Shown: positions 9,138 to 52,755 of the stretch, in pieces
Position numbering within the stretch: position 1 is the stretch's first letter
Layout of the letters: each line of letters opens with the position of its first letter
Sequence record: MK310184
DNA: 64,000 bases
Source of the DNA: Phage NC-G
Reading direction: 5' to 3' (one strand)
Notes under the pieces: model-generated
Database searches by the model: none
Told to the model about the DNA's origin: nothing
Seen by the model: the letters and a program-made list of their open reading frames with translations, nothing else
Position numbers and translations under genes: made by a program

Positions 9138-9341
9138 TCAATTCAGGTTACGTTTAAAAATATCTGCTACTTCAAGGAGCTCGTCCTTAGTAGCGATGTC
9201 GTTGAGTATTTTATATCTGATTTCTTTAAAGCGTTCTTTAAAATCCTCAGCCGCATTGATATCAAAAAAACGTTGGATTAACCGGAATTCTTTATGAACA
9301 GCTTTATCAAACAAATCAATATTGACTTTAAAGTTTGTCAT
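9138..9341 (-). CDS. hypothetical protein (rIIA.1 position)
   Basis: track ORF, co-oriented and tightly packed; no motif recognised. Confidence 0.5.
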   Translation of the reverse strand: MTNFKVNIDLFDKAVHKEFRLIQRFFDINAAEDFKERFKEIRYKILNDIATKDELLEVADIFKRNLN

Positions 9342-9651
9342 TTTTAACTACCTCATGTTGAACATATTCTCTGGTAGAACCTAGTTCAGCCAGAATTCTT
9401 CTCATAGAACCCATTGTACTTTTGTGCTCTCTGTGGCGATACAATATCTCTAAAACCTTTTCCTGGACAACAGGAGAGAGCGCCTGGTTATCTTTAATCT
9501 TTAAGGCAATAGATTTTACAGCCTTTAAGTATTCTAACCCCTTACCGCTTGTAATCACTACTCCTTCATCTTTACAGTTACGAATAGCCGTTTCCATAAA
9601 GGATAAAGCCAAGTTGTCAGTGTTCACTATACTATTATCTTGCATAATCAT
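9328..9651 (-). CDS. hypothetical protein (107 aa)
   Basis: track ORF; strong AAGAGGTGA RBS. Confidence 0.55.
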   Translation of the reverse strand: MIMQDNSIVNTDNLALSFMETAIRNCKDEGVVITSGKGLEYLKAVKSIALKIKDNQALSPVVQEKVLEILYRHREHKSTMGSMRRILAELGSTREYVQHEVVKNDKL

Positions 9652-9669
9652 ATTCTCACCTCTTAGAGA

Positions 9670-9699
9670 ATCGTATCACACTTTTAACCTGTTGTAAAC
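9670..9699 (-). promoter_or_regulatory. possible early promoter
   Basis: -35 GTTTAC 9694-9699, 18-bp spacer, weak -10 TACGAT with upstream TG. Confidence 0.35.
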
Positions 9700-9700
9700 C

Positions 9701-9724
9701 CCCGAAAAGGGCCTTGCGGCCCTT
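9701..9724 (-). terminator. intrinsic terminator (GNRA-loop hairpin)
   Basis: AAGGGCC-GCAA-GGCCCUU (9707-9724) followed by UUUUC on minus transcript, after the 53-aa ORF. Confidence 0.5.
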
Positions 9725-9726
9725 GA

Positions 9727-9888
9727 TTAGTTGCTTGAATCGACTCTATAAACTTGACCACGGGTTTGGTAAACTTCGCCGTCCCATGTTTCAACTGTGA
9801 TAGTAACGTACTCTGCAAAAAGAGGACGTGTATCTGTCCAGAGATAACCATATTCACCTGTGACGAGCGTAACCCAGTACTTTCTCAT
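9727..9888 (-). CDS. hypothetical protein (53 aa)
   Basis: ATG 9888 with AAGGAG RBS; not in track (below size cut-off). Confidence 0.4.
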   Translation of the reverse strand: MRKYWVTLVTGEYGYLWTDTRPLFAEYVTITVETWDGEVYQTRGQVYRVDSSN

Positions 9889-9902
9889 AAAGTCTCCTTT
9901 TA

Positions 9903-9922
9903 TACGGTACTCATGTACCGTA
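9903..9922 (-). other. RNA hairpin between gene 39 stop and downstream RBS
   Basis: 8-bp palindrome tacggtac/gtaccgta with 4-nt loop, immediately 5' of AAGGAG RBS. Confidence 0.45.
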
Positions 9923-9930
9923 CGTATTTA

Positions 9931-21731: not shown

Positions 21732-22253
21732 TTAATATCCATTATCCTGGCGTTCAAAATTATGTTTGTTCTTCAGGTAGTACAATTTAAAGATTTCTTC
21801 AGCAGTAAGACCAAGACCTTGGAACATATTCAGAACGAAATGGAGAATATCAATCATTTCAAATTTGATTTCAAGCTGGTCTTCAGGAGACAGTTCATCG
21901 ATACGACGATTTCGATATTCAGCATGTTGCGCCTTCCACGGCTTCCATACACTGCTGGCGGCTTTTTCACCATTGCTCATACCACCAAGTGAAGTCAGCA
22001 GTTCACGGAATTCATCATCAATATAATCTTTCTGATTACGTAGCCAATCAACAACATCACCAGCAGTGGCCAATTCATCAGGATGTTTGTTATGTTCAGG
22101 CTTGTCATTTGCCAGACGAACCTGTAAAGATTTCTGCATATCAAGCATTACCTGCAACGGGTCTTTATCTTCGTGAATAAGAGCATTAAAATAAGCTTCT
22201 TCAGCTTTATCAACACCAGCAATCAGTTGTGAACATTCGTTAAAGTGCGCCAT
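21732..22253 (-). CDS. 56: dCTPase/dUTPase (MazG-like) gp56
   Basis: track ORF trimmed to ATG 22253 (AAAGGA RBS); 173 aa; general resemblance to recalled T4 gp56. Confidence 0.8.
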   Translation of the reverse strand: MAHFNECSQLIAGVDKAEEAYFNALIHEDKDPLQVMLDMQKSLQVRLANDKPEHNKHPDELATAGDVVDWLRNQKDYIDDEFRELLTSLGGMSNGEKAASSVWKPWKAQHAEYRNRRIDELSPEDQLEIKFEMIDILHFVLNMFQGLGLTAEEIFKLYYLKNKHNFERQDNGY

Positions 22254-27460: not shown

Positions 27461-27774
27461 CTCTTAGATTTAATTTTATCCAGTTCTTCTTGTATTTGCA
27501 TTGTAACACATTTTTCTACATGAAGCGCTAGCTCTTCTTTTCGGTCTTCGGAAGGCGTTCCGAAATCAACCGACACTTTTCCATCTTTCTCAATAACAAT
27601 ATTCATCACATAAACGATGTGAGCAGTGCCATCGGGTAATGTAAGCATAATTTCCTGCTTAACAGAACCCATTGACTTACGGATTATATCTAACGATTTC
27701 TCATAATAACGAGGGTCACTAGGACCCTCTTCAGTATCTTTAACAAAATTATCTAAATCAGATAAATCAGTCAT
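27445..27774 (-). CDS. hypothetical protein at gene 40 position
   Basis: 109-aa ORF overlapping uvsX stop and gene 41 start, as gene 40 does in T4. Confidence 0.55.
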   Translation of the reverse strand: MTDLSDLDNFVKDTEEGPSDPRYYEKSLDIIRKSMGSVKQEIMLTLPDGTAHIVYVMNIVIEKDGKVSVDFGTPSEDRKEELALHVEKCVTMQIQEELDKIKSKRWWKW

Positions 27775-28939
27775 CTAAATCCATCTCTTCTAAATCGTTT
27801 TCGATATCAGCAGCGCTTTGAGTGTCACCACCCAATTTAACTGCAACGTTTTTAGAGACACGAGAGTTAATAAGGTCGTTCACCGCATCATCGACTTCTT
27901 TAATAGAATTAATTGCACCGAGCTTATACTTATTCTCGATTGCTTCACGGAATGGAGCATGTTTAAACAGCGGTCCCCAGAACTCAACACAATCGGTAGC
28001 TTTAGCACGCCATGATTTTTCTTCTTGAACCATTTCACCTGTGGTTTCGTCAAGGAATGCACGATTATACCAACCAGCTTTAGGTTTCACGACAAAGCCA
28101 ATATCAGTAGCCATTTCGAGCAGACCACTAAATGGGTCAATACCACCTTCAAAGTTCACAGTAATTGGGAACGTTGATTTCTCTTTAACAGTACGAGATT
28201 TTTCGGCCTTCAGGGTGAAGTCATAACCAGTGAGCTCGGTTCCATCTTTAACCTGACGTTTGGAGATAAAGAACACGGTAGAAGCAGAGTACAGAATACC
28301 AGTACCACCACCCATAATCTCTTTAGGATACATTCCACCAATTTCCATAGCCGTATGGTTAATTGCTACACAAGGAATATCCTTGATAGTCAGATAAGGT
28401 GTTACGATACGGAACAGAGATTTCAAAGACTTAGCACGAGTCATATCACCTACAACTTTCTCGTTCAAAGCATCTTCGGTTTCTTTCTTAGAAGCAGTGT
28501 TACCGATGGAGTCGATAAAGATAATAACCTTTTCGCCACGAGTAATTTCTTCTAATTGGTTGGTCATGTCAACCTTCAGTTGTTCGACCGACTGGATTGG
28601 CGTATGAACCACACGTTCCAGGTCAACACCCATTGAACGGAAATAAGATTCTGAAGCACCAAACTCAGAGTCATAGAACAAACAAATTGCGTCTGGATAT
28701 TTCTTCATATATGCCGCAACCATAGTTAATCCAAACAACGTTTTAAAGTGTTTAGACGGCGCAGCAAAGATTGTCAAACCTGATTGTAAGCCTGCATTCA
28801 ATGCACCACCCAATGCAATATTAAGCATAGGAATACGAGTAGGAACTTCGTCACGACCATTAAACAATTTAGATTTGGTCAGGTCGGCAGTCATTTTAGA
28901 AGTAGAAGCTTTAATCAAACGGGATTTTAAATCAGACAT
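27767..28939 (-). CDS. uvsX: UvsX recombinase (RecA-like)
   Basis: 390 aa; RecA-fold Walker A (AAPSKHFKT) and long collinear resemblance to recalled T4 UvsX. Confidence 0.92.
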   Translation of the reverse strand: MSDLKSRLIKASTSKMTADLTKSKLFNGRDEVPTRIPMLNIALGGALNAGLQSGLTIFAAPSKHFKTLFGLTMVAAYMKKYPDAICLFYDSEFGASESYFRSMGVDLERVVHTPIQSVEQLKVDMTNQLEEITRGEKVIIFIDSIGNTASKKETEDALNEKVVGDMTRAKSLKSLFRIVTPYLTIKDIPCVAINHTAMEIGGMYPKEIMGGGTGILYSASTVFFISKRQVKDGTELTGYDFTLKAEKSRTVKEKSTFPITVNFEGGIDPFSGLLEMATDIGFVVKPKAGWYNRAFLDETTGEMVQEEKSWRAKATDCVEFWGPLFKHAPFREAIENKYKLGAINSIKEVDDAVNDLINSRVSKNVAVKLGGDTQSAADIENDLEEMDLDD

Positions 28940-28991
28940 TATATTTTTCCATAGGCATCATTATATTTTTCTCACGTTTTAAGATAGGGTA

Positions 28992-29018
28992 ATTATATCA
29001 CTTCACAGCTACAGCATT
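28992..29018 (-). promoter_or_regulatory. candidate MotA-dependent middle promoter for uvsX
   Basis: MotA-like box AATGCTGTA (29010-29018), 12-bp spacer, -10 TATAAT (28992-28997). Confidence 0.4.
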
Positions 29019-29148
29019 ACTTAATTCCTCGGTTGATAGCCTTATCGACTATCTTCCGAACTTCTCGTTTCTCGAGCCACACTAATAATAGCAAGGCTCC
29101 GAAAGAGAATAATAACAAACCTATAAAAAGCAATAGAGGACCTAGCAT
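29017..29148 (-). CDS. small membrane protein (43 aa)
   Basis: ATG overlaps upstream stop (ATGCTAG); hydrophobic MLGPLLLFIGLLLFSFGALLLLVW... Confidence 0.3.
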   Translation of the reverse strand: MLGPLLLFIGLLLFSFGALLLLVWLEKREVRKIVDKAINRGIK

Positions 29149-30035
29149 ACTACGTCCTCATAACGTGGCATTTCGTATTCAGAATGAATATTGGCACCGA
29201 AATAAATGAATTCAGCCAGACCAGGATGAAATACTAAACCTGGGTTCTCATGATAAATGATATGTGGTCTTGATTTCAGAATTTGATAATATTCAACCTT
29301 ACTCGGTTTGAATTTAATAATCTCTACATCAGGACGATAGTCTTCACGTTTAAATGAATCGTTAGGGTCGGTGATATAAAGACGAGCACCTTCAGCCGCA
29401 GCTTGGTCTACAACTCTTTCGAATTGATAACACTTATCTGAAATACGGAACGGATGGAAAATACCATCAATTTTAATAGGCGCTAGACCTTCAGAGTAAC
29501 GCTCAATTACTGCCGGATTAATTACCTTTTGGTCTACAAAAATTTTATCAGAGGATGCACCTCGTGACACCAGGACGTCTTTCTGGCATTGATTCAGCAC
29601 TGTAGTATAAAGTGAACGTTCAACTGAAGCCACATCAATATCAATGAACTCGTCGATATAATAACGAGGAACTTCAGGGTCCATTGTGATATTAAAGTTG
29701 AATTGTACAGTATGAGCGCCGTCATAACCGGTGATATCGGTTACTAGTCCTGAGCAATCATAGTATTCGATTAGAGAATCGACTACAAACTCGTTTTCAG
29801 ACCAGAAATGTTTACGGGTTTCATAAGCATTTTCTTTATACCAAAGTGGTACGAAATTCAGTTCTGGGAATAATTCAATGCATTCTTTGATATCGCTCGA
29901 ATTTCTAGGATAAGCCAGATAATCACCTGGACGAGCACGATTTAAATGGAGTTGAAAATTACCGTCCTTAAGGACGGCATATTCACCTGTTTCGTAACTA
30001 CGCATACTGAAAATAGGAACGATAAACAGACTCAT
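29142..30035 (-). CDS. hypothetical protein in beta-gt slot; candidate hmC sugar transferase
   Basis: 297-aa ORF; start overlaps stop of 42-like gene (ATGA); function inferred from position only. Confidence 0.55.
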   Translation of the reverse strand: MSLFIVPIFSMRSYETGEYAVLKDGNFQLHLNRARPGDYLAYPRNSSDIKECIELFPELNFVPLWYKENAYETRKHFWSENEFVVDSLIEYYDCSGLVTDITGYDGAHTVQFNFNITMDPEVPRYYIDEFIDIDVASVERSLYTTVLNQCQKDVLVSRGASSDKIFVDQKVINPAVIERYSEGLAPIKIDGIFHPFRISDKCYQFERVVDQAAAEGARLYITDPNDSFKREDYRPDVEIIKFKPSKVEYYQILKSRPHIIYHENPGLVFHPGLAEFIYFGANIHSEYEMPRYEDVVC

Positions 30036-30730
30036 TTCAGGAAACCTCGGACGTAGTCAAAATCACGTTCAAACACGTGTGCACTTACCATGGTGTGGGA
30101 ATACGTACCTAAACCGACACCACACTGTTCAGCAATAAATGCCATCAGTTTACCCTGCAGATAGAAATCCAGTTGCATAACAACAGCGCAGTTTTGTGAA
30201 CGCATATGGGTATGTGCATACAAACGTCCGTCACGGATATAATACGTCACCGAATCAGTGCATGGATATTCTAAGGATTCGTCAGAATCAAGGAGGGCTT
30301 GGTCTTGTTCTTGGAGAATCTGGAACACAACTCTTCGCGAGTTAGCCTTTTCTTTAAGCTCTTTAAGTAGGGCTGGGAGTTGGGCCACAATTCGAGGTCC
30401 ATAGAAAGTGTTGAAGTTTGCAGGCAATACGTCACTTTTCGGCTTATCAATGAACTTAGCAACATTAGGATATTCCTTAAATGCTTCGGCAGCGTCAGTA
30501 CCACCAGAAATCATAAATTTCCAAAAGGATTCGGCATATTCGTAACTAATACGATTGATACGTGGGTCGGTGAATTTATAGGTGCTGGCATCCAGTACTT
30601 CTATCGAAGCAGAACCAATTTCATAACAACGTCCGATACGAGAATCAACTGCAAACTGCGGAGCTTCCAGGATTTCTTCGTTCATTTGTTTAAATGCATT
30701 TTCAAAACTAACAGCGGTAATGTGTTTCAT
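30032..30730 (-). CDS. 42: dCMP hydroxymethylase-like (thymidylate synthase family), divergent gp42
   Basis: 232 aa; TS-family signature around catalytic Cys (SRR...YPCTDSV.YYIRDGR...MRSQN); ATGA coupling both sides. Confidence 0.65.
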   Translation of the reverse strand: MKHITAVSFENAFKQMNEEILEAPQFAVDSRIGRCYEIGSASIEVLDASTYKFTDPRINRISYEYAESFWKFMISGGTDAAEAFKEYPNVAKFIDKPKSDVLPANFNTFYGPRIVAQLPALLKELKEKANSRRVVFQILQEQDQALLDSDESLEYPCTDSVTYYIRDGRLYAHTHMRSQNCAVVMQLDFYLQGKLMAFIAEQCGVGLGTYSHTMVSAHVFERDFDYVRGFLK

Positions 30731-31263
30731 TTATTCACCTTATTTTCAATATATTCGTTCAGACGTTTTAATTCTACCATATCAACATTAAGCAAATTAT
30801 TATGGCCGTCATGATTTAAGATTTTAAACACGTTTTCAAAACATGTTTCGTATTGCCGGATAGTTAGGTTGAACTCATCTTTGGTTAATTTAATAAGGTC
30901 GTCTTCAAAGTCTTCATCTAATGGATTACGAGTTAAAATAACCTCGATAACATTAAATTCGGATTTAAACCCTTTCCAATCTTCCAGTTCTACATAAGGG
31001 TCCATTTCACCACGAAGGAATCCTGAGTAAACAATATTACTTGGATAACCGCGGTCAAGGATGTAGACGAAATTAGGGTCTAAAAACTTATACAGAGTTT
31101 CAACTAAGGCCTTATCGTTATCAGTTCCTAATGAAATACATTTACCATTAATCTTTTTAGGAAAATCAATAAGACGATATTTCTTATCGGATAACAGATT
31201 TTTAATTAAAGTAGACTTCCCGGAATTATCCGGGCCGTCTATAACAATGATTTTTGGATTCAT
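30727..31263 (-). CDS. P-loop kinase (nucleotide or sugar kinase family)
   Basis: 178 aa; Walker A IVIDGPDNSGKSTL; translationally coupled within cassette. Confidence 0.6.
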   Translation of the reverse strand: MNPKIIVIDGPDNSGKSTLIKNLLSDKKYRLIDFPKKINGKCISLGTDNDKALVETLYKFLDPNFVYILDRGYPSNIVYSGFLRGEMDPYVELEDWKGFKSEFNVIEVILTRNPLDEDFEDDLIKLTKDEFNLTIRQYETCFENVFKILNHDGHNNLLNVDMVELKRLNEYIENKVNK

Positions 31264-31643
31264 GGATGATAGGCCTTATAACTATCAAGAGTTCCTTCAC
31301 GAACCATTTCTTTAAAGTGGTCAGGACGGATTGCTCGGTCATCGATGATAAAAGTATAACTCGGCTTGTGTGTAAGCAAATTGTGGTATTTCAATCCAAT
31401 TTTTTCAAGGTTCTTAACCAATGCAGGAACTACTTCAACCAAGATTCGACCTGGGCCACATGAAGTCATGCCACGGGCGGTGAACAATGTAATCTCGTAC
31501 CCTTCATCATAAAGCTTATTAATCATGGACACCATTTCGGTGTCCGGTTTAAAGTTCTCATAATCACGGTCATGGTTCCAAATCGTGATTGTGTTATCGA
31601 TATCAAAACATAAATGTGGCTTATTTTCTACTCGATGCGACAT
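31260..31643 (-). CDS. HAD-superfamily phosphatase
   Basis: track ORF trimmed to ATG 31643 (TAATG coupling); motifs DIDNTIT, LFTARG, FIIDDR. Confidence 0.65.
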   Translation of the reverse strand: MSHRVENKPHLCFDIDNTITIWNHDRDYENFKPDTEMVSMINKLYDEGYEITLFTARGMTSCGPGRILVEVVPALVKNLEKIGLKYHNLLTHKPSYTFIIDDRAIRPDHFKEMVREGTLDSYKAYHP

Positions 31644-33316
31644 TAAATTTTCTTCCATTGTTTGTGGAGTTCAGTAGAACCTGTAGGTTTATATTTTACA
31701 CCAGTTTCCTGGTCAAGCAAAACCCACTTATCAGGACAACGAGTAATAATTTGAGCCGTAATAGGGTCACGAACTTCATCGACAAATTCACCAGTAATAA
31801 GCTTACGCTTACGAGGATGCCGCTTCAGCAGCACACTCAGTTGGTACAAACCGTTATAATAAGCACCTAGAGCTTTCAGAGGGTTATTCTTAAAGTAACC
31901 TGCCAGAGCCATCCAAATAACAGCAATCCAGAGCTTGTGCTTAAATGTGCACATAGGAATATCGTCTAAAGGCATAACCTTTTCAATATCAACGAACACA
32001 CGAGTCCCATTACGAGTTAAGCCACCCCATAGAGGGTCTGAGTTAAATTTGTCATAGCCATCGATAGAATAAAGCACCTTAGCTTCATCATAAATCGCAG
32101 GGCCTTTAGAACTATTACCGAAATAACCACGTGGGTCGATGATTTTAATATCACCTTCATCTGACAGCATAATATTACTGTAGTGTGGGTCGCCATGAAT
32201 AAGTTGGTACGGCTCTTTATGTTCAGACAGAATTTCTAATGCATGGCGGAGAAGTTTTTCAGGGTCGCCTACCTTGAAGTCATTAACGTGGGTAATGCCT
32301 TGTGGAGCAAAGCCTTCAATCAATCCGGCAATAGAAGCATTACGAATAAGGACCTTGTCCAATACTTCTTTCTTAACATCGGAATACCATTGCTCATCGG
32401 ACGGGTTATCGATAGTTCCACCGAATGAACGTAATGCACTAATGACCTTATAAACCATGAGGACTTTAGTTTCTTTAGACATAAACCGGTAGGCATCTGC
32501 CATGGTACGACCAAAGATACGTTCCATTTTAATGAATTCGCCTGGAGAAAAGTCTACAATGCTAGGAACGAATTCAGAATCAATAGAATTATACCAATTG
32601 ATTTCTTTAGATTGAATTTCTTTACCTAATTCGTTAGTTGGTACTTTAATGGCCAGATTCTCGGTGAACTCTAATTTATTAAATTCACGGTTAATTTCAG
32701 ATTCTTCATGGGCTTTAGCCAGTTTCAATTTGTCACCGACATCAACTACAAAGTCCAGTTTACGTTCAGTCAAATAGACCATTGAATCCAGGTTATCAGC
32801 AAGGTCTTCGCCATAATTAGAACGGTCGAAACCTGTCCAATTGGCTACCTGATACAAACCAACTACGCCACCACCCGTACCAATTTCACGTAAGTACGGT
32901 TCTTCAAATGTAAAGCGACAGTCAGTTCCATAGGTATAACAGTAGTCGTTACCCCATTCAACTTTATGACCAATAGGAATGATGTCACACCAGTTAAACA
33001 AGACATTATGGCCAATGATATCTTCGGCAATGCAATCAATAGCATGAGCTGAACCATTAGCAACGTCAACGTTACGAATAGTGAATTTAGGCTTATCACC
33101 AGTAATCATGTTAATGGATTTAATATAGCCTTTAACGAGGTCGTTAAATTTGCTGTGAATAACCAGAATAATTTCATCTGATTGGTTACTATACAAATCA
33201 TACAAATGCTTTAATACCGTATGTTGTTTGTAGTTAACCAATACCTTCGGGATTTCGTTAGTAATTGGATACAACCGTGAGCCAAGACCCGCGCCTAAAA
33301 TAACAACCTTTTTCAT
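31643..33316 (-). CDS. bifunctional sugar-1-phosphate nucleotidyltransferase / sugar kinase (APH-like)
   Basis: track ORF trimmed to ATG 33316 (GAGGAA RBS); N-terminal ILGAGLGSRL; C-terminal HGDPHYSN and IIDPRG. Confidence 0.7.
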   Translation of the reverse strand: MKKVVILGAGLGSRLYPITNEIPKVLVNYKQHTVLKHLYDLYSNQSDEIILVIHSKFNDLVKGYIKSINMITGDKPKFTIRNVDVANGSAHAIDCIAEDIIGHNVLFNWCDIIPIGHKVEWGNDYCYTYGTDCRFTFEEPYLREIGTGGGVVGLYQVANWTGFDRSNYGEDLADNLDSMVYLTERKLDFVVDVGDKLKLAKAHEESEINREFNKLEFTENLAIKVPTNELGKEIQSKEINWYNSIDSEFVPSIVDFSPGEFIKMERIFGRTMADAYRFMSKETKVLMVYKVISALRSFGGTIDNPSDEQWYSDVKKEVLDKVLIRNASIAGLIEGFAPQGITHVNDFKVGDPEKLLRHALEILSEHKEPYQLIHGDPHYSNIMLSDEGDIKIIDPRGYFGNSSKGPAIYDEAKVLYSIDGYDKFNSDPLWGGLTRNGTRVFVDIEKVMPLDDIPMCTFKHKLWIAVIWMALAGYFKNNPLKALGAYYNGLYQLSVLLKRHPRKRKLITGEFVDEVRDPITAQIITRCPDKWVLLDQETGVKYKPTGSTELHKQWKKI

Positions 33317-33375
33317 TATCTGTTCCTCAAGTGAATGTAGGTACATTATACACTATTTTTAATAAATTCTATTGC

Positions 33376-33876
33376 TTAAATCTTATCTTTACCGTATTCC
33401 ATACACTGTTCTACTGCAGCAGGCACTTTGGTCTTAAGCTTGTTGATTTGTTTCTTATAATCACGCGCCTTATCGAAGCTCTCGGTTTCGAGCATTTCGT
33501 AATAACGAGCCTCATGAATAGAAACCTGTAAATTGATATGGTTTACACACATCGCATACAGTTTCTGCTTTTTGTACAAATCATCTTGGCGCTTCATTTC
33601 TGCCTGGTGTTTGGCTAGTACCGCTTCACGCTTAGACTCTTGTTCACGTTGGAATTCGATTTCCCTTTGAGCATATTTTGCGCAGTTATTACCGCATTGA
33701 TTATTAGCTCGGGTATACACAAGTCCAGAACCGGCACGGAATTTCATTTCGCCATCGAATTGTTTCTGTTCGGCTGCAATACGAGCTTTACCAACTTCAT
33801 CAGCTGAAACTGCATCACCGTATTGGACCGCGCAACCTGATAGGAGCATACTCATTGCGATAATTAACTTTTTCAT
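33376..33876 (-). CDS. putative lipoprotein (166 aa)
   Basis: signal peptide with lipobox LSGC; GAGGA RBS; charged coiled-coil-like C-terminal half. Confidence 0.6.
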   Translation of the reverse strand: MKKLIIAMSMLLSGCAVQYGDAVSADEVGKARIAAEQKQFDGEMKFRAGSGLVYTRANNQCGNNCAKYAQREIEFQREQESKREAVLAKHQAEMKRQDDLYKKQKLYAMCVNHINLQVSIHEARYYEMLETESFDKARDYKKQINKLKTKVPAAVEQCMEYGKDKI

Positions 33877-33883
33877 AATATCC

Positions 33884-34021
33884 TCAATTAAAACAGTTAT
33901 ACTTAATTTGTGCTATAAGAATAATCCATCCCATGATTAATGTTGGAATCATTGGAGGAATTGCCACTGCCCAATAAATGGTAAAGGCAGCCATTATAAG
34001 AAATAAAATAATTATCTTCAT
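33884..34021 (-). CDS. small membrane protein (45 aa)
   Basis: ATG overlaps upstream stop (ATGA); hydrophobic; below track size cut-off. Confidence 0.35.
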   Translation of the reverse strand: MKIIILFLIMAAFTIYWAVAIPPMIPTLIMGWIILIAQIKYNCFN

Positions 34022-34254
34022 TGTTTAACGATAATGATTTGTGCGTTTGATTTACGTTCAGCGACGATAGCCCAGATTAAAGCCACTACCCAACCAATCA
34101 TCGTCCATCCTAACAGGAGATTAAGGAAGAAGATTCCGACATTGCTACGAGTGCCTCGCAGAAGAGCCAGAATCCATGGTAAAAAGTAACCAATGAACAT
34201 AATAACCAGAGAACCGAATCCTAAAACACCAGCACTAACGATTAAAGCTTCCAT
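34018..34254 (-). CDS. small membrane protein at imm position (78 aa)
   Basis: track ORF; two TM helices; first gene after early promoter; position matches T4 imm. Confidence 0.5.
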   Translation of the reverse strand: MEALIVSAGVLGFGSLVIMFIGYFLPWILALLRGTRSNVGIFFLNLLLGWTMIGWVVALIWAIVAERKSNAQIIIVKQ

Positions 34255-34284
34255 TATAATTTCCTCATGTAGTTGATAGGAAGG

Positions 34285-34314
34285 ATAATACCACGTTCCC
34301 TGTGGTATGTAAAC
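34285..34314 (-). promoter_or_regulatory. early promoter inside 3' end of gene 43
   Basis: -35 GTTTAC 34309-34314, 18-bp spacer, -10 TATTAT 34285-34290, conserved cctatcaac box. Confidence 0.5.
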
Positions 34315-34316
34315 AC

Positions 34317-37028
34317 TTAAAAGTCGAACATGTCAAATAATGTTGCTTTTTTCTCGTAGTCGATTTTAGCAGACTCGGTAAAACCGGTCAGAGGTTTGAT
34401 AAAGGTCTTTTGGAACAGTACGTTGTAGTCCATCCAACGGAGGACTTGGTCACGAATCTGAATCGGGAGTTCAATACCTGACGGCCATGCCATACAAGCT
34501 TCACCGAACGGGTTGCCTTCTTTAAGTGGCAGTACATATACCTTCTCACCATCAACGATACGAGGCATAGTCAAATCACCAGCAGAAGCACGCATGTAAG
34601 CTAAGCAACCTTTGATGTGGTACGGACATTTAGAACCAGGGAAACCACCTTCATTATATTTCTCAATGTTGTTAGCACTGGATACTGCAGCAATGCTTAC
34701 ATAGTCTAATTCGTTAAATTCCTTATTAAACTGTTTGAAATATTCTTGCAAAGAGGCCTCGCCTTCTTGAAGCATACGACGGATGCATTCTTTCAGTGCT
34801 TTCTGAACCGCTTTAGGTGTACTTGATTTCTGAGTTTCGAGACCCATGATTTTCAAGTGTGGTTCGGCATAACGAGTACCTTCCATGTCCCAAACGTTCA
34901 GTGCATAACGTTTCTTGCCTGTCCAGAATCCACCAAGACCTTTAGAACCAAGTGGAGGACCAGCGATAGCTTCTCGGTCCATGAACATCAAGTGCTGTTT
35001 ATTGTTCATGTATTCACACATCTCACGGAAGCCTGCATCAATAGCAGGTTCCATACGTTCACGTGCAAATTTATCTAAGAAGTCAACCCAGTGGTTAGTA
35101 TCACGGAATTTGTCTTCGCCTACTTTATTGATGATTGCGTCAGCCTTAACATAAATGGAGTCGGTATCACCATAGAGCACGAACTTCTGGTTTTCGGTCT
35201 TACATACGCTATTCAGATATTCGTTAACCTTACGTTCAATCCATTGGAGGGCCATTTGACCAAACAATGTGATTGCAGTTGCGTTCCTGAGGTCATAGTA
35301 ACGGAACCATACGTTACCAAGTGCACCATAAAGGGAGTTGATAAGCAACTTACGGTTAATCTGAGCAGTCATACCTGCGACTTCAGTACGTTCGGCTTTG
35401 AACAACATTTCTTTTAAAGAAGCTTCTGACAATTTTTTAATCTGGGCTTTGACTTCGTCAGAGAAGTCGAAACGATAATCAACATCCAGTGGACTATCAT
35501 CAGACGGATTAGGATTTTCTAATGCTTCTTTAATTAACTCGCCATTACGTTGAGCTGCAAGCATATAACCTTTATGTTCTTTACGTTGTAAGAACACCTT
35601 CGTGATTTCTGTAGGAATAACACCATCACGGTCTTTATAGTACATCATGCCGTTAGGAGAGCAACTGTAGGTGTCGCTAGGACGCGGAGCAGTTCCGGCA
35701 ATATATTCATGTATAGGTGCGTTGGCGAATGTGCCTGCGATGGTCTCTGGGCTTATATTCACTTGTCGAATGATACTCGGGTACAGAGATGTAAGGTCGA
35801 AACTCATTACATATTTGTACGCGTTAGGAATCGGTTCCTTAACGAAAGCACCTGGATAAGGTTGAACCGCGTGCGATTTGGCCTGAGGAATAACTTTACC
35901 CTGTTCTTTAAGGCTATTAAAGATAATAGCGTCCCAAGTCTTAATTGGGCTGAACACCGACTGAATCTGCATCTTGGCATAGTAACCCATGTCCAGACTA
36001 AGAAGAATGAACTGGCGCTTCATATCAATCTGCACAACACGATATACGTCGATAATGTTATAGGAAATATATCGTTGGTGGTTCGTCTCACGTAACTTGG
36101 AGATAGGACCATCATATTTCAACTTACCTACTTTCAATTCATATTCAGAAACATAATCCAGAGAATAAGAAGGCTGGTTGGTAAAGCTGAATTTTTTATA
36201 AAGGTCGATATAGTCCAGAACAGAAATACCGAACAGTGTAATAATTTCACGAGCACCGTACATGTTCTCGATAACTTTAACACGAGTCTTACGATGCGGG
36301 CTTAATCGCTTAGCAGTGTTCTCACCAAACAGATTTTTCAGACGGTTATAAACGTATGGCACGTCAAATGATTCAACGTTCCAGCCGGTCAAAATCACAG
36401 GAGTTTTCTGTTGCCAGAAATTCAGATACTCGAGCATCATTTCTTCTTCGGAATTAAACGGAAGATAAACGATTTTGTCAATGATTTCCTGTGGAACTTC
36501 GTCACCACCTTCGTCTTGGAGTTTCTCAGCGATTTTAATCGACCACTCTTCGACCGTACCATAAGGTGAAACTAAAAGGTCAAATACATAGAATTTATCA
36601 TCAATCGAGTCGTAGTGAGTAATGGCATCGATAGGATGTTTAGCCTGGGCAGGTTCAGGGAATCCATCAGGAGATGTTACCTCGATGTCGAAGTTAGCAA
36701 TACGAATCTTGGAAGAATCATACTTGATTTCTTTACGATAGGTATCAGACAAATAGGCTAATTTATAGTCGTCCATACCAAGGGCTTCAAGTCCCATATC
36801 GTCCATGCGCTTCATCCATTGAGAAGCATCACGCATTGAATCGAATTCTTTCTTAACACAACCCTTACCATAGATGTCAATGTATTTTACGGCTTGCTCT
36901 GGGTTAGCATGCATAAACATTGTAGGCTTGTAAGGAACTTCACGACTACGTTCGTTACCATTTTTATCGATGTAACGTTCGAGAATATTATCACCGATTT
37001 GTTCGACTGTCAAATAGAATTCTTGCAT
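34317..37028 (-). CDS. 43: DNA polymerase gp43 (family B)
   Basis: track ORF trimmed to ATG 37028 (AAAGGA RBS); 903 aa; exo and pol motifs (FDIE, YGDTDS); collinear with recalled RB69/T4 gp43. Confidence 0.95.
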   Translation of the reverse strand: MQEFYLTVEQIGDNILERYIDKNGNERSREVPYKPTMFMHANPEQAVKYIDIYGKGCVKKEFDSMRDASQWMKRMDDMGLEALGMDDYKLAYLSDTYRKEIKYDSSKIRIANFDIEVTSPDGFPEPAQAKHPIDAITHYDSIDDKFYVFDLLVSPYGTVEEWSIKIAEKLQDEGGDEVPQEIIDKIVYLPFNSEEEMMLEYLNFWQQKTPVILTGWNVESFDVPYVYNRLKNLFGENTAKRLSPHRKTRVKVIENMYGAREIITLFGISVLDYIDLYKKFSFTNQPSYSLDYVSEYELKVGKLKYDGPISKLRETNHQRYISYNIIDVYRVVQIDMKRQFILLSLDMGYYAKMQIQSVFSPIKTWDAIIFNSLKEQGKVIPQAKSHAVQPYPGAFVKEPIPNAYKYVMSFDLTSLYPSIIRQVNISPETIAGTFANAPIHEYIAGTAPRPSDTYSCSPNGMMYYKDRDGVIPTEITKVFLQRKEHKGYMLAAQRNGELIKEALENPNPSDDSPLDVDYRFDFSDEVKAQIKKLSEASLKEMLFKAERTEVAGMTAQINRKLLINSLYGALGNVWFRYYDLRNATAITLFGQMALQWIERKVNEYLNSVCKTENQKFVLYGDTDSIYVKADAIINKVGEDKFRDTNHWVDFLDKFARERMEPAIDAGFREMCEYMNNKQHLMFMDREAIAGPPLGSKGLGGFWTGKKRYALNVWDMEGTRYAEPHLKIMGLETQKSSTPKAVQKALKECIRRMLQEGEASLQEYFKQFNKEFNELDYVSIAAVSSANNIEKYNEGGFPGSKCPYHIKGCLAYMRASAGDLTMPRIVDGEKVYVLPLKEGNPFGEACMAWPSGIELPIQIRDQVLRWMDYNVLFQKTFIKPLTGFTESAKIDYEKKATLFDMFDF

Positions 37029-37085
37029 TTCATTTCCTTTATAGACGAGTGATTGTCTTTTGTTTGTTGATGAATCATTATACTC

Positions 37086-37106
37086 CAAAAAGGGACCGAA
37101 GTCCCT
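37086..37106 (-). terminator. terminator-like UUCG hairpin between regA and gene 43
   Basis: AGGGAC-UUCG-GUCCCU (37091-37106) followed by UUUUUGG; -10-like TATAAT directly downstream. Confidence 0.5.
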
Positions 37107-37116
37107 CTGCTTAAAC

Positions 37117-37479
37117 TTAATTACCAATCGTATACTTAGACAGCAGTTCCCAGTCATTTTTCTGTTTAAAGGAAATGACGCGGAAGTTGTTGGTGATTTC
37201 GAACAATTCGGAATCGTCTACAATATCAATAAGTCCCCAATCCTTAAGAAGCTGGGCGATAGAATCGCGACGTTGGTAGTCTTCACCATCGATATCTACC
37301 TGGCGTCCGTCCATACGCAACATTTCTTTAAAGTGGACAATATAATATCGTCCTTGCTTTTGCAAAATGTGACAGGACTGATATAGTTTCTTTTCTTTAT
37401 TATTAGCGATACCCATACGAGTCAGGGTCTCTTTCACTTTTAGGAAGTCTTCGGGTTGCTTCAGAGTAATTTCAATCAT
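37117..37479 (-). CDS. regA: RegA translational repressor
   Basis: 120 aa; near-identical blocks to recalled T4 RegA (MIEITLK.PEDFLKVKETLTRMGIAN...). Confidence 0.9.
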   Translation of the reverse strand: MIEITLKQPEDFLKVKETLTRMGIANNKEKKLYQSCHILQKQGRYYIVHFKEMLRMDGRQVDIDGEDYQRRDSIAQLLKDWGLIDIVDDSELFEITNNFRVISFKQKNDWELLSKYTIGN

Positions 37480-42390: not shown

Positions 42391-43409
42391 CGTGTAACCT
42401 CATTATAAAGTTGTGCGGCCATAGTCTTAAGGGCTTTAACATCGTCTTCAGTGTGGCCATCAGGAAGGGCATCGATATAATCATACATCATATCCAAGAG
42501 GGACTTAACTTCATCTTCCTCTTCAGAATCATCGATATCAACGCTGTTATCTACCTTAGACACAATACGTAAAGAGTGAACAACCTTTTCAAGCTCTGAT
42601 TCGAACTTAGTAAGCCCGTCATCGATTTTATCGACTATAACACGAACTGCGATATTTGTAAAATCTTTGTAATCGATGGTTGCATTAGGATAATGAATCT
42701 TACGGTGCCAACAGGTTTCATTAATTACGAAATCCATTTTATGCGTTTCGGTATCGAAAATCCAGAAGCCACGAGGGTCGTTCTCATCACCAGCAGTTAG
42801 AGTCCATGGGGTGCCAATGTACTTGACGTTTGCTGCATCAGAAATAGTGTGGAAGTGACCAGACCAAACTTGCTTATACTTTTTAAGGAAATCAGGTTCT
42901 AAACCGTGAGATTTCATTCCTTTATAGAAATAGAAACCATTTAATTCCCAGTGACCAATACAGAAATCTGCTGTAGTATTTTTGATATGTTCCATGATAT
43001 CAGTCGTGTTTTCTTCACACATCCATGGAATCAAATCAATTTCTGTGCCATCAAAGTTAACCGTAGTAGGTTTTTCAATAACCTTGATATGGTCATATTT
43101 ACCCAGAACTTCAGAAGCCGCGTTCGGCGTCAGGGTATTTTTGTAGTGGGCATCATGGTTACCAACGACCGTATACATGGTAATGCCACTTTCTTTAAGC
43201 AAATCCGAAATATGTCTAGCAAATTCCATGCACTTATGGGTAATTGCTTTACGGACGTCAAAGATATCACCATACTGAATCCAAACCGTGATACCGTTTG
43301 CTTTAGAATAATTGATGGCGTCTTTAATGCCGGCTAATTGAATATTCTGCACCCAAGGGTCATCGTTCTTCACTCCAAGGTGCCAGTCACCTGTATTAAG
43401 AATTTTCAT
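42387..43409 (-). CDS. 47: recombination nuclease subunit gp47 (SbcD/Mre11-like)
   Basis: track ORF trimmed to ATG 43409; calcineurin-like phosphoesterase motifs (GDWHLG, GNHD, GHWE). Confidence 0.9.
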   Translation of the reverse strand: MKILNTGDWHLGVKNDDPWVQNIQLAGIKDAINYSKANGITVWIQYGDIFDVRKAITHKCMEFARHISDLLKESGITMYTVVGNHDAHYKNTLTPNAASEVLGKYDHIKVIEKPTTVNFDGTEIDLIPWMCEENTTDIMEHIKNTTADFCIGHWELNGFYFYKGMKSHGLEPDFLKKYKQVWSGHFHTISDAANVKYIGTPWTLTAGDENDPRGFWIFDTETHKMDFVINETCWHRKIHYPNATIDYKDFTNIAVRVIVDKIDDGLTKFESELEKVVHSLRIVSKVDNSVDIDDSEEEDEVKSLLDMMYDYIDALPDGHTEDDVKALKTMAAQLYNEVTR

Positions 43410-44013
43410 TGCGTATTCGTTCCCACATTTTGGAGGCTGCTTTAGAAGCAGAGCCAGGAAGTTTACCTTTGACCCACCCATCAGGAATATTAGATGGATT
43501 AATCAGTTTATGTTCTATTCCGTTATTATACCACTTCCTGCCCTTATTATGACTAGATGCTTTATAATTAGGCGAACGGCCCTCTACATATCCTTCAGGA
43601 ACCGTGGGTGCAAAGGTTTGTTCTAATGTAGCAGGATTATAGGAATGGATATATCCCTTGGCATTATGAGAACCATAAAGAGGATGCTGTTCTTTAGGTA
43701 GCGAAAGCCCAAAGAACCCTTTAGGGGCTGCAATAGACCTATTAAAGAACAGAGGGTTTTGAGCTGCATCCATTCTTAATTGGTACGTTCTTTCAGCTTC
43801 TAAAGCCTCTTCTCTTGTAGGGTGTTCACTTACAATACACGAGTCAAATAATTCAGGATGCTCTAAAAGCTCCTTGTTATAGATTTCTTTATATGCTTTA
43901 GAAAGAACACTCCCATGGTATCCTTTTAAATGCTTCTCTAAAGTAGTGGACCCTATATAAAACGGTGGAAGCTTAGTCCCGGAATATATTGTCAGGTATG
44001 TGATGTATTTCAT
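43396..44013 (-). CDS. hypothetical protein, possible GIY-YIG endonuclease (alpha-gt slot)
   Basis: 205 aa; N-terminal TIYSG..(8)..YIGST resembles GIY-YIG; C-terminal KWYNNGIE-type motif. Confidence 0.45.
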   Translation of the reverse strand: MKYITYLTIYSGTKLPPFYIGSTTLEKHLKGYHGSVLSKAYKEIYNKELLEHPELFDSCIVSEHPTREEALEAERTYQLRMDAAQNPLFFNRSIAAPKGFFGLSLPKEQHPLYGSHNAKGYIHSYNPATLEQTFAPTVPEGYVEGRSPNYKASSHNKGRKWYNNGIEHKLINPSNIPDGWVKGKLPGSASKAASKMWERIRNENS

Positions 44014-51840: not shown

Positions 51841-52755
51841 TTATTTTAGAGCTAATACTGCCGCGCGGAGTTTGTCACGCTGGATTTCCATATTCTTGAT
51901 GCGAATCAATACGTCTTGAATACTCTTTTTCTCATCTTCGATCTGACCGTTTAAACGGTGGATTGATTCCTGGATGTAGTCTTCATGATACTTCTCAATA
52001 GGTTTCATCGTAGGGTTAGTAACCACCATAGAATTATCAGGTGTAATTTTCCACTGATATGGATTAGAATTGAATGGAGAAGGCACAGCGGTAGTTTTGA
52101 ATTTGTCATAGGCTGCATACTGGCCTACACTGTCACATGATACTGCAGAGATACGACGTTCCATTTGTGGTTCCTTTTGTTGGGATTGATAAGGGGCATA
52201 AGACAAAAGATATTCTTTAGTCAATTTAATATCAATTGCTATAGTTTTAAGGAATTTTTCTGTTTGATGGATATAATTTGTATCTTCATCAAACGTGTAT
52301 GCTTCAACGGCATGACGCATATAAAACAGCGCAATACCCATAACCTCTTTAAAGGCATCACAAAGGGCAACATCGCCTTTAGTAGTTGGCTTGAACTTAA
52401 TCTGCACCCCATCATTCTTGATATTGATAATCAAGTTATTGGAGTTGAAATTATAGTTTTTGATGTTAACCGAAGCTTTACGAATACGAAGTCCGCCAGC
52501 CAGGATTTCCTTGATGCTCTTGCGAACTGTGGCACCAAACAAAAACGCCGGGCGGCGGCAGTAATCATTCAGAGAATTAATTCTTACAATACGTTGTCCA
52601 TACCCCTGGGTGGCAGAACCTGATTTAATTTTGCCAAAGTTAACCAGAGAATTCATCGCGATAAGACGAGTCACACGAACATCATGTGGTTCATAACTAC
52701 TAGTATATTCAGCACGAGTTTTAATTTTCATATCATAGTCCAAATAATTTTTCAT
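51841..52755 (-). CDS. hypothetical protein (304 aa)
   Basis: track ORF. Confidence 0.6.
   Translation of the reverse strand: MKNYLDYDMKIKTRAEYTSSYEPHDVRVTRLIAMNSLVNFGKIKSGSATQGYGQRIVRINSLNDYCRRPAFLFGATVRKSIKEILAGGLRIRKASVNIKNYNFNSNNLIINIKNDGVQIKFKPTTKGDVALCDAFKEVMGIALFYMRHAVEAYTFDEDTNYIHQTEKFLKTIAIDIKLTKEYLLSYAPYQSQQKEPQMERRISAVSCDSVGQYAAYDKFKTTAVPSPFNSNPYQWKITPDNSMVVTNPTMKPIEKYHEDYIQESIHRLNGQIEDEKKSIQDVLIRIKNMEIQRDKLRAAVLALK

Follow-up and report, generated by a model that had tools for sequence, protein, structure and literature searches.

Between uvsX and the DNA polymerase gene (gp43) of Phage NC-G (MK310184) lie five minus-strand open reading frames (ORFs), at positions 29142-33316 of the 64,000 nucleotide stretch analysed here, which is called the window throughout. 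The locus raises the question whether these genes form a DNA hypermodification cassette and, if so, which base and which sugar are used. In all likelihood the cassette is the Dhakavirus copy of the pathway that replaces the cytosine of virion DNA with arabinofuranosyl-5-hydroxycytosine (ara-5hoC; the Afh system). The cassette, its link to the arabinosylation of RB69 DNA and its role in making the donor sugar are already published. The addition made by the window is modest: it offers a natural minimal version, separating core from accessory genes, and it yields the prediction that the DNA carries mono-arabinosyl-5-hydroxycytosine made from arabinose 5-phosphate of the host. This hypermodification protects the DNA of phages against restriction enzymes and CRISPR nucleases but is itself a target of type IV restriction, which has a bearing on how T4-like coliphages are chosen and engineered for therapy.

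The window belongs to a Dhakavirus, a T4-type coliphage resembling JS98 and JS10. Over positions 29000-33400 its nucleotide identity to UP19, JS98, JS10, IME281 and further phages is 97.6-97.8%, and 51 phage records contain 80% or more of this stretch. The cassette is flanked by uvsX (27767-28939) on one side and, beyond a 166-aa ORF and imm, by gp43 (34317-37028, minus strand) on the other. The corresponding interval of T4 is occupied by segA, beta-gt and gene 42, so that the placement in the beta-gt slot of T-even phages, proposed in a first-pass annotation made from the letters alone, holds. The translational coupling of the five genes described there is also found. The junctions between the TS homolog (TS, thymidylate synthase) and the 297-aa protein, between the kinase and the TS homolog and between the HAD phosphatase and the kinase are ATGA stop-start overlaps. 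The fusion gene and the HAD gene overlap by 16 nt, or by TAATG if the HAD protein starts at its second Met. The five ORFs are real genes and not chance reading frames, because homologs of the 297-aa protein are found in 352 phage records and homologs of the fusion in 367.

The nature of the base is indicated by the 232-aa TS-superfamily protein (30032-30730, minus strand; Pfam Thymidylat_synt, 3.3e-13), the ortholog of RB69 gp48 with 79% identity. According to Lee et al. (NAR 2026, PMC13326640), synthases of 5-hydroxy-dCMP (5hodCMP) are recognized by an Asn in place of Asp169 (E. coli ThyA numbering), combined with the catalytic Cys146, N177D and L143D/E. The 232-aa protein was aligned with RB69 gp48, T4 gp42, JS98 td (the thymidylate synthase proper of the phage) and a ThyA sequence of E. 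coli whose numbering reproduces all of the 12 residues listed by Lee et al. The complete signature is present, as C157 (Cys146), E155 (L143E), N180 (D169N) and D188 (N177D), and Asp at position 169 is kept in T4 gp42 and in both true thymidylate synthases. In a search of the PDB the protein matched 9IQU, 9IQC and 9IR2, entries named 'thymidylate synthase', with E = 3e-125, against 1.2e-4 for the T4 dCMP hydroxymethylase (1B49), and its identity to T4 gp42 is 24-25%. Judging from the entry series and the near-identity to RB69 gp48, we take these three entries and 9IQW to be, most likely, structures from phage HY126. The D169N signature and the match to the 9IQU series argue that the 232-aa protein is a dCMP 5-hydroxylase and that the base is 5-hydroxycytosine, not 5-hydroxymethylcytosine (hmC). 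The protein falls outside the gp42-type dCMP hydroxymethylase family, and its first-pass description as a gp42-like hydroxymethylase making hmC is not upheld. The reaction is known from RB69 gp48 and DLP3 gp80, which make 5hodCMP from dCMP with oxygen taken from O2 and with bound flavin (18O2 and FMN in the case of gp48); the product is phosphorylated by RB69 gp159 (PMC13326640).

The sugar donor is represented by two genes. The 557-aa fusion (31643-33316, minus strand) is the counterpart of AfhE and of RB69 gp52:53, with a putative sugar-1-phosphate uridylyltransferase as its N-terminal part and an APH-like kinase, proposed to be an arabinose-5-phosphate 1-kinase, as its C-terminal part. The longest possible ORF begins at 33346 and encodes 567 aa, but the start at 33316, which is also the one annotated in JS98, is preceded by a ribosome-binding site, GAGGA, at a distance of 8 nt. 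Pfam gave NTP_transferase (3.4e-08, residues 13-110) and APH (9.5e-06, residues 356-427; numbering of the 567-aa ORF), and phrog_4098 covers the full length. The 132-aa HAD phosphatase (31260-31658, minus strand; 127 aa with the alternative start at 31643), counterpart of AfhF and RB69 gp51, is a proposed arabinose-1,5-bisphosphate 5-phosphatase. It matched 9IQW (E = 5e-54) and 1XPJ (4.5e-12) in the PDB, TIGR01689, a capsule-biosynthesis phosphatase model, with 1.3e-14, which is under the cut-off of that model, and HAD families weakly. The fourth gene (30727-31263, minus strand) encodes a 178-aa P-loop nucleotide kinase of the thymidylate kinase-like (TMK-like) type, the counterpart of RB69 gp45 and DLP3 gp78. 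It matched phrog_761, 'thymidylate kinase' (8e-40), its matches to TMK and CMK P-loop models in Pfam and NCBIfam are weak, and the PDB search gave no relative. The fifth gene (29142-30035, minus strand) encodes the 297-aa protein, ortholog of RB69 gp46:47 and DLP3 gp79 and the putative first (base-proximal, alpha) arabinofuranosyltransferase on 5-hydroxycytosine. The motifs quoted in the first-pass annotation (GPDNSGKST, DIDNTI, TARG, IIDDR, ILGAGLGSRL, HGDPHYSN and IIDPRG) are all seen in the translations, where the HAD protein shows DxDxT, T and DD, and its domain calls agree with Pfam, NCBIfam and PHROG, which give no domain for the 297-aa protein.

All five proteins have RB69 counterparts in a published module, and in the JS98 record the five genes bear notes of similarity to RB69 orf047c, 048c, 045c, 051c and 052c. 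Besides the 79% of the hydroxylase, the identities are 70% and 65% for the 297-aa protein (RB69 gp47 and gp46), 38% for the kinase (gp45), 62% for the HAD protein (gp51) and, over its full length, 44% and 41% for the fusion (gp53 and gp52). The suspected tie to RB69 arabinosylation is thereby borne out. Arabinose on RB69 DNA was reported by Thomas et al. (2018, PMC6024577), who proposed ORF53_52c and ORF055c as genes for UDP-arabinose synthesis, described the module between uvsX and the polymerase gene and noted a full-length homolog in Dhakavirus IME08. By LC-MS (liquid chromatography coupled to mass spectrometry) and nuclear magnetic resonance (NMR), Lee et al. (PMC13326640) identified the bases of RB69 and DLP3 as mono- to tri-arabinofuranosyl-5-hydroxycytosine, the sugar being ether-linked directly to C5, and by synteny they extended the cluster to Dhakaviruses among eleven other groups. 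As cited in PMC13326640, He et al. (Nat Chem Biol 2026) found in phage HY126 that AfhE is a bifunctional kinase/pyrophosphorylase and that AfhF is a Mg-dependent phosphatase converting arabinose 1,5-bisphosphate to arabinose 1-phosphate. For phages of Serratia, E. coli and Acinetobacter the modification was described by Mahler et al. (Cell Host Microbe 2025), as quoted in PMC13326640 and other papers.

The donor pathway had been called undefined when the cassette was first noticed, which the proposal of 2018 and the AfhE and AfhF enzymology contradict. The idea of a route to a nucleoside diphosphate sugar was sound, as homologs build UDP-arabinofuranose, an NDP-pentose, but the order suggested for it, with the phosphatase first, was not: in the published order, as related in PMC13326640, the kinase first converts arabinose 5-phosphate to arabinose 1,5-bisphosphate, which the HAD enzyme turns into arabinose 1-phosphate, the precursor of UDP-arabinofuranose. 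Nor does the cassette hold a complete salvage route, since the isomerase carried by RB69 is missing.

Every core feature of the ara-5hoC (Afh) system that can be tested in silico is present in the window: a 5hodCMP synthase, an AfhE-type fusion, an AfhF-type HAD protein, a gp46:47-family protein and a TMK-like kinase. The features absent from it are the isomerase and a second or third arabinosyltransferase, both of which are accessory. With tblastn, RB69 gp55 (arabinose-5-phosphate isomerase), gp50 (peptidase-U32-like), gp49 and gp3 (proposed second arabinosyltransferase) gave no match, either in the window or across JS98, whose genome was searched as five loci tiling its full 170.5 kb. In Mosigviruses the site of gp3 is the gap between rIIA.1 and gene 39. 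Here this gap (9342-9930) contains small ORFs only, for example one of 107 aa (9328-9651), and JS98 likewise annotates nothing in its gap of about 590 bp. No glycosyltransferase domain was found in ten other large unassigned ORFs of the window. Members of the T4 glucosyltransferase families are absent too, as alpha-gt and beta-gt gave best tblastn E-values of 0.027 and 0.27 over short segments; their absence from the window, noticed at first reading, extends to the complete JS98 genome.

The isomerase is accessory and does not define the ara-5hoC cluster, because it is also absent in Klebsiella and Proteus relatives and its homologs are found in 276 phage records against 367 for the fusion. 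About 80 records have a Dhakavirus-type fusion (at least 60% identity), a number similar to that of the records without the isomerase. The second and third transferases (RB69 gp3, DLP3 gp76/77), which serve the di- and tri-arabinosyl forms, are accessory as well, because phages that add a single arabinose do without them. Homologs of gp3 occur in 212 phage records, with identities of at least 95% or below 60% and none at 60-95%. With its five genes the Dhakavirus cassette appears to be the most reduced version among those compared. One arabinose was found in LC53 and two in Bas46, according to papers quoting Mahler et al. (2025); RB69 is di-arabinosylated, with gp3 proposed as the second transferase (PMC13326640). 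Two pentoses are found in the phages that have a gp3 homolog (RB69, Bas46, NP), one in those that have a single transferase (LC53, Thanatos). Because no second arabinosyltransferase was found, the predicted base is mono-arabinosylated 5-hydroxycytosine, the form known from LC53, rather than the di-arabinosyl one that RB69 and Bas46 contain.

The pathway can be outlined by orthology, the dCTPase, hydroxylase, monophosphate kinase, polymerase, sugar kinase, phosphatase and uridylyltransferase steps having been shown for homologs. The gp56 dCTPase, encoded outside the cassette (21735-22253, minus strand; 97% identity to RB69 gp56 by tblastn) and functionally linked to the pathway, would supply dCMP and remove dCTP, the role listed for it in PMC13326640. 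The TS-like enzyme would hydroxylate dCMP at C5 with flavin and O2 to give 5hodCMP. A gp1-type deoxynucleoside monophosphate kinase, encoded outside the window, and the nucleoside diphosphate kinase of the host would convert this to the triphosphate, to be incorporated into DNA by gp43. E. coli makes arabinose 5-phosphate for the synthesis of 3-deoxy-D-manno-octulosonic acid (Kdo), by the isomerases KdsD and GutQ. Because of this role, and because no phage isomerase is present, arabinose 5-phosphate is probably supplied by the host. The C-terminal kinase domain of the fusion would then form arabinose 1,5-bisphosphate, the HAD phosphatase would remove the 5-phosphate, and the N-terminal uridylyltransferase domain would convert the resulting arabinose 1-phosphate to UDP-arabinofuranose. 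Finally the 297-aa protein, in its predicted role as transferase, would place one arabinose on the 5-hydroxyl, the number of sugars being deduced from the gene content.

Several points weigh against this reading. The 297-aa protein, named as candidate transferase at first reading, is also the published candidate for the first arabinosyltransferase, a role that is predicted. Neither phmmer nor a profile of 65 sequences gave a fold in the PDB, none of the 65 family members has a Pfam domain, and the 297-aa protein has no NCBIfam match. In hhalign comparisons nothing was found against RB69 gp3, and T4 beta-gt reached a probability of 0.2%. A structure predicted from the single sequence (predicted local distance difference test, pLDDT, 30.8; predicted template modelling score, pTM, 0.19) was too poor for a fold search. 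By these sequence routes a GT-B or other glycosyltransferase fold could not be confirmed. Single glycosyltransferases were inactive on DNA containing 5-hydroxycytosine in the work of Lee et al., who leave undecided whether the first arabinosylation takes place on the mononucleotide or on DNA (PMC13326640). In Shewanella phage Thanatos, TH1_063, a 300-aa protein encoded beside the TS homolog, was assigned UDP-xylose pyrophosphorylase activity; it reportedly formed UDP-xylose in vitro and accepted xylose 1-phosphate (PMC12838424). By its size, its position and a statement of Lee et al., TH1_063 is probably an ortholog of the 297-aa protein. The count of one sugar is affected by the fact that a very divergent second transferase may lie beyond the reach of BLAST and Pfam. 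A search with the 297-aa protein itself (tblastn, window and JS98 genome) gave only the self match and no paralog. JS98 orf86, which is also 297 aa long, was considered as a paralogous transferase and ruled out by tblastn; its counterpart in the window is a DUF7235 protein. The latter (51841-52755, minus strand; 304 aa, E = 1e-121) lies roughly at the position of orf86.

From these observations it can be asked whether the 297-aa protein is a DNA glycosyltransferase at all. It could instead glycosylate 5hodCMP before replication, the TMK-like kinase phosphorylating the product, or it could form the sugar nucleotide. The lack of sequence similarity of its family to any known glycosyltransferase in the PDB, Pfam and hhalign searches, the inactivity on DNA and the UDP-xylose formed by TH1_063 are consistent with this. 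The company of the kinase is as well, for it accompanies the TS homolog and the first glycosyltransferase in RB69, DLP3 and the unrelated Rhizobium phage RL38J1 (gp214-216; PMC13326640), although a gp1-type kinase handles 5hodCMP. Because these three genes travel together despite the gp1-type kinase, addition of the first sugar to the mononucleotide could follow. A role other than that of a DNA glycosyltransferase is nevertheless considered unlikely. A broader proposal is that the five genes are an irreducible core that works without isomerase, gp50 and second transferase, in which either the first sugar is added before replication, with a dedicated kinase acting on the glycosylated nucleotide, or the fusion loads a pentose other than arabinose. 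This is doubtful, if slightly less so.

The preferred assignment to ara-5hoC also assumes that the substrates are those of RB69. The catalytic activities of the fusion are assigned from its homologs, and an identical substrate specificity is an assumption, as the fusion (41-44% identity) and the kinase (38%) have diverged from RB69 much more than the flanking uvsX (90%) and gp43 (83.5%). A cassette of the same architecture could, in Dhakavirus-type phages, use another pentose, for example ribose or xylose, or another entry substrate. The divergence of the fusion from that of RB69, set against uvsX and gp43, points in this direction. So do the roughly 80 records with a Dhakavirus-type fusion, a number similar to that of the records lacking the isomerase, the two representative relatives that also lack it, and the acceptance of xylose 1-phosphate by TH1_063; the literature search found no chemical analysis of any Dhakavirus DNA. 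Against a different sugar stand the HAD protein (62%), the transferase (65-70%) and the hydroxylase (79%), which stay close to RB69. The isomerase can moreover be dispensable, as E. coli already makes arabinose 5-phosphate, and Lee et al. place the Dhakaviruses with the arabinosylating phages by synteny (PMC13326640). Use of another pentose or entry substrate is accordingly judged improbable.

There is still less room for the original view that a gp42-like hydroxymethylase makes hmC and that the cassette, through phosphatase, anomeric kinase and pyrophosphorylase, turns it into arabinosyl-hmC. RB69 DNA was first reported to be of this kind (PMC6024577), the 232-aa protein is a TS superfamily member that keeps the catalytic Cys and the Asp selecting dCMP, and some database records name its homologs dCMP hydroxymethylase. 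The arabinose of that report stands, but the hmC does not: RB69 DNA was later reassigned to ether-linked arabinosyl-5-hydroxycytosine (PMC13326640), and in the Durham-collection paper the earlier assignment is called erroneous. The Asn at the Asp169 position, the far greater likeness to a proven 5hodCMP synthase than to T4 gp42, in identity as in PDB E-values, and the published order of the sugar reactions, beginning with the kinase on arabinose 5-phosphate, make arabinosyl-hmC very improbable. An auxiliary metabolic module for a capsule or lipopolysaccharide sugar, suggested by homolog labels such as 'capsule biosynthesis protein', 'phosphoheptose isomerase' and 'GlmU' and by the weak resemblance of the HAD protein to a capsule-biosynthesis phosphatase family, has a negligible probability and is rejected, as the genes directly overlap the dCMP hydroxylase gene in the DNA-modification slot of T4-type genomes, relatives bearing the cluster have arabinosylated DNA by LC-MS and NMR, and inactivation of the Thanatos fusion homolog nearly abolished phage propagation.

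Many of the database names of the cassette genes are thus shown to be misleading. The public labels are inconsistent: the hydroxylase is entered as 'thymidylate synthase' or 'dCMP hydroxymethylase', the HAD phosphatase either as 'capsule biosynthesis protein' or as 'phosphoheptose isomerase', and the fusion as 'GlmU', and the 297-aa protein goes under the name 'RNA polymerase binding protein'.

The region around the cassette was also characterized. A scan of 28800-34400 for promoters and terminators was no richer than shuffled sequence (19 versus 18.2 and 3 versus 3.5, respectively), and therefore no operon boundaries were drawn from it. The 166-aa ORF (33376-33876, minus strand) separates the cassette from imm and takes the place that the arabinose-5-phosphate isomerase has in RB69. 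It has a lipoprotein-type N-terminus, MKKLIIAMSMLLSGC, with the lipobox LSGC, belongs to phrog_1754 and gave no meaningful match in Pfam or NCBIfam. Its counterpart is JS98 orf43, for which the JS98 record notes no RB69 similarity, and it could be a superinfection-exclusion lipoprotein. The superinfection immunity gene imm (34018-34254, minus strand; PF14373, 5e-18) is directly upstream of gp43. Because imm of RB69 is found elsewhere, near gene 61.4, the interval near gp43 is rearranged between Dhakavirus and the genus of RB69. The mechanical ORF of gp43 (34317-37157) has 946 aa, but since homologs align only from residue 44, the real start is 37028, which gives 903 aa as in the JS98 annotation. 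Near the alpha-gt/mobB slot of T4 there is a 205-aa ORF (43396-44013, minus strand) that overlaps the end of the gene 47 ORF and is missing from the JS98 annotation of that interval. It gave a weak GIY-YIG nuclease match (E = 0.008) and may be a seg-type homing endonuclease.

Among known systems the closest is the gp45-gp55 and gp3 cluster of RB69 (Mosigvirus), which shares with the window the slot between uvsX and gp43, the five orthologs and the dCTPase, and which likewise lacks alpha-gt and beta-gt. RB69 has gp55, gp50, gp49 and gp3 and the window has none of the four; at the position of gp55 it has the lipoprotein-like ORF and imm. The kinase gene, which in RB69 is the neighbour of uvsX, is placed in the window between the genes for the TS homolog and the HAD protein. 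The first transferase gene (araT1) and the fusion gene are intact in the window, whereas both are split by sequencing errors in the RB69 record (gp46/gp47 and gp52/gp53). In the Afh system of HY126, the dCMP hydroxylase, AfhE and AfhF correspond to the 232-, 557- and 132-aa proteins, although the HY126-type sequence is of the Mosigvirus and not of the Dhakavirus kind.

LC53 (Serratia/Prodigiosinella) and Thanatos resemble the window in having one first-step transferase, and they carry one pentose per cytosine, as is predicted for the window. Thanatos has its TS homolog, 300-aa protein and 561-aa fusion in the same arrangement (PMC12838424), and CHI14, a close relative of LC53, differs in carrying the isomerase. 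Klebsiella phage CP-p-KP-21072 and Proteus phage PM2 (Bragavirus) have the gene order of the window (fusion, HAD, kinase, further genes, TS homolog, araT1) and no isomerase, but they keep a gp50-like protein of 386-388 aa (83-86% identity to RB69 gp50), which the window lacks. The cassette proteins are 69-87% identical to those of the Klebsiella phage, with 80.5% for the fusion, 77% for the kinase, 83% for the HAD protein and 87% for the TS homolog; the 297-aa protein is equidistant from RB69 and the Klebsiella phage (about 68-69%). Because the cassette is closer to the Klebsiella phage than to RB69 although gp43 is more distant (69% versus 83.5%), the comparison of the sequences indicates a mosaic that has arisen by modular exchange.

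The glucosyl-hmC system of T4 (gp42, gp56, gp1, alpha-gt and beta-gt) follows the same logic of a dCTPase, a TS-family enzyme acting on dCMP, kinases and polymerase, and sugar transfer, and it shares the genomic slot for the TS homolog and one transferase. The chemistry is different. In the window hydroxylation would be carried out with flavin and O2 and followed by an ether-linked pentose, whereas T4 uses hydroxymethylation with folate and places glucose on the hydroxymethyl group. The donor differs too, being drawn from the host as UDP-glucose in T4 and, as predicted for the Dhakavirus cassette, made by the phage itself.

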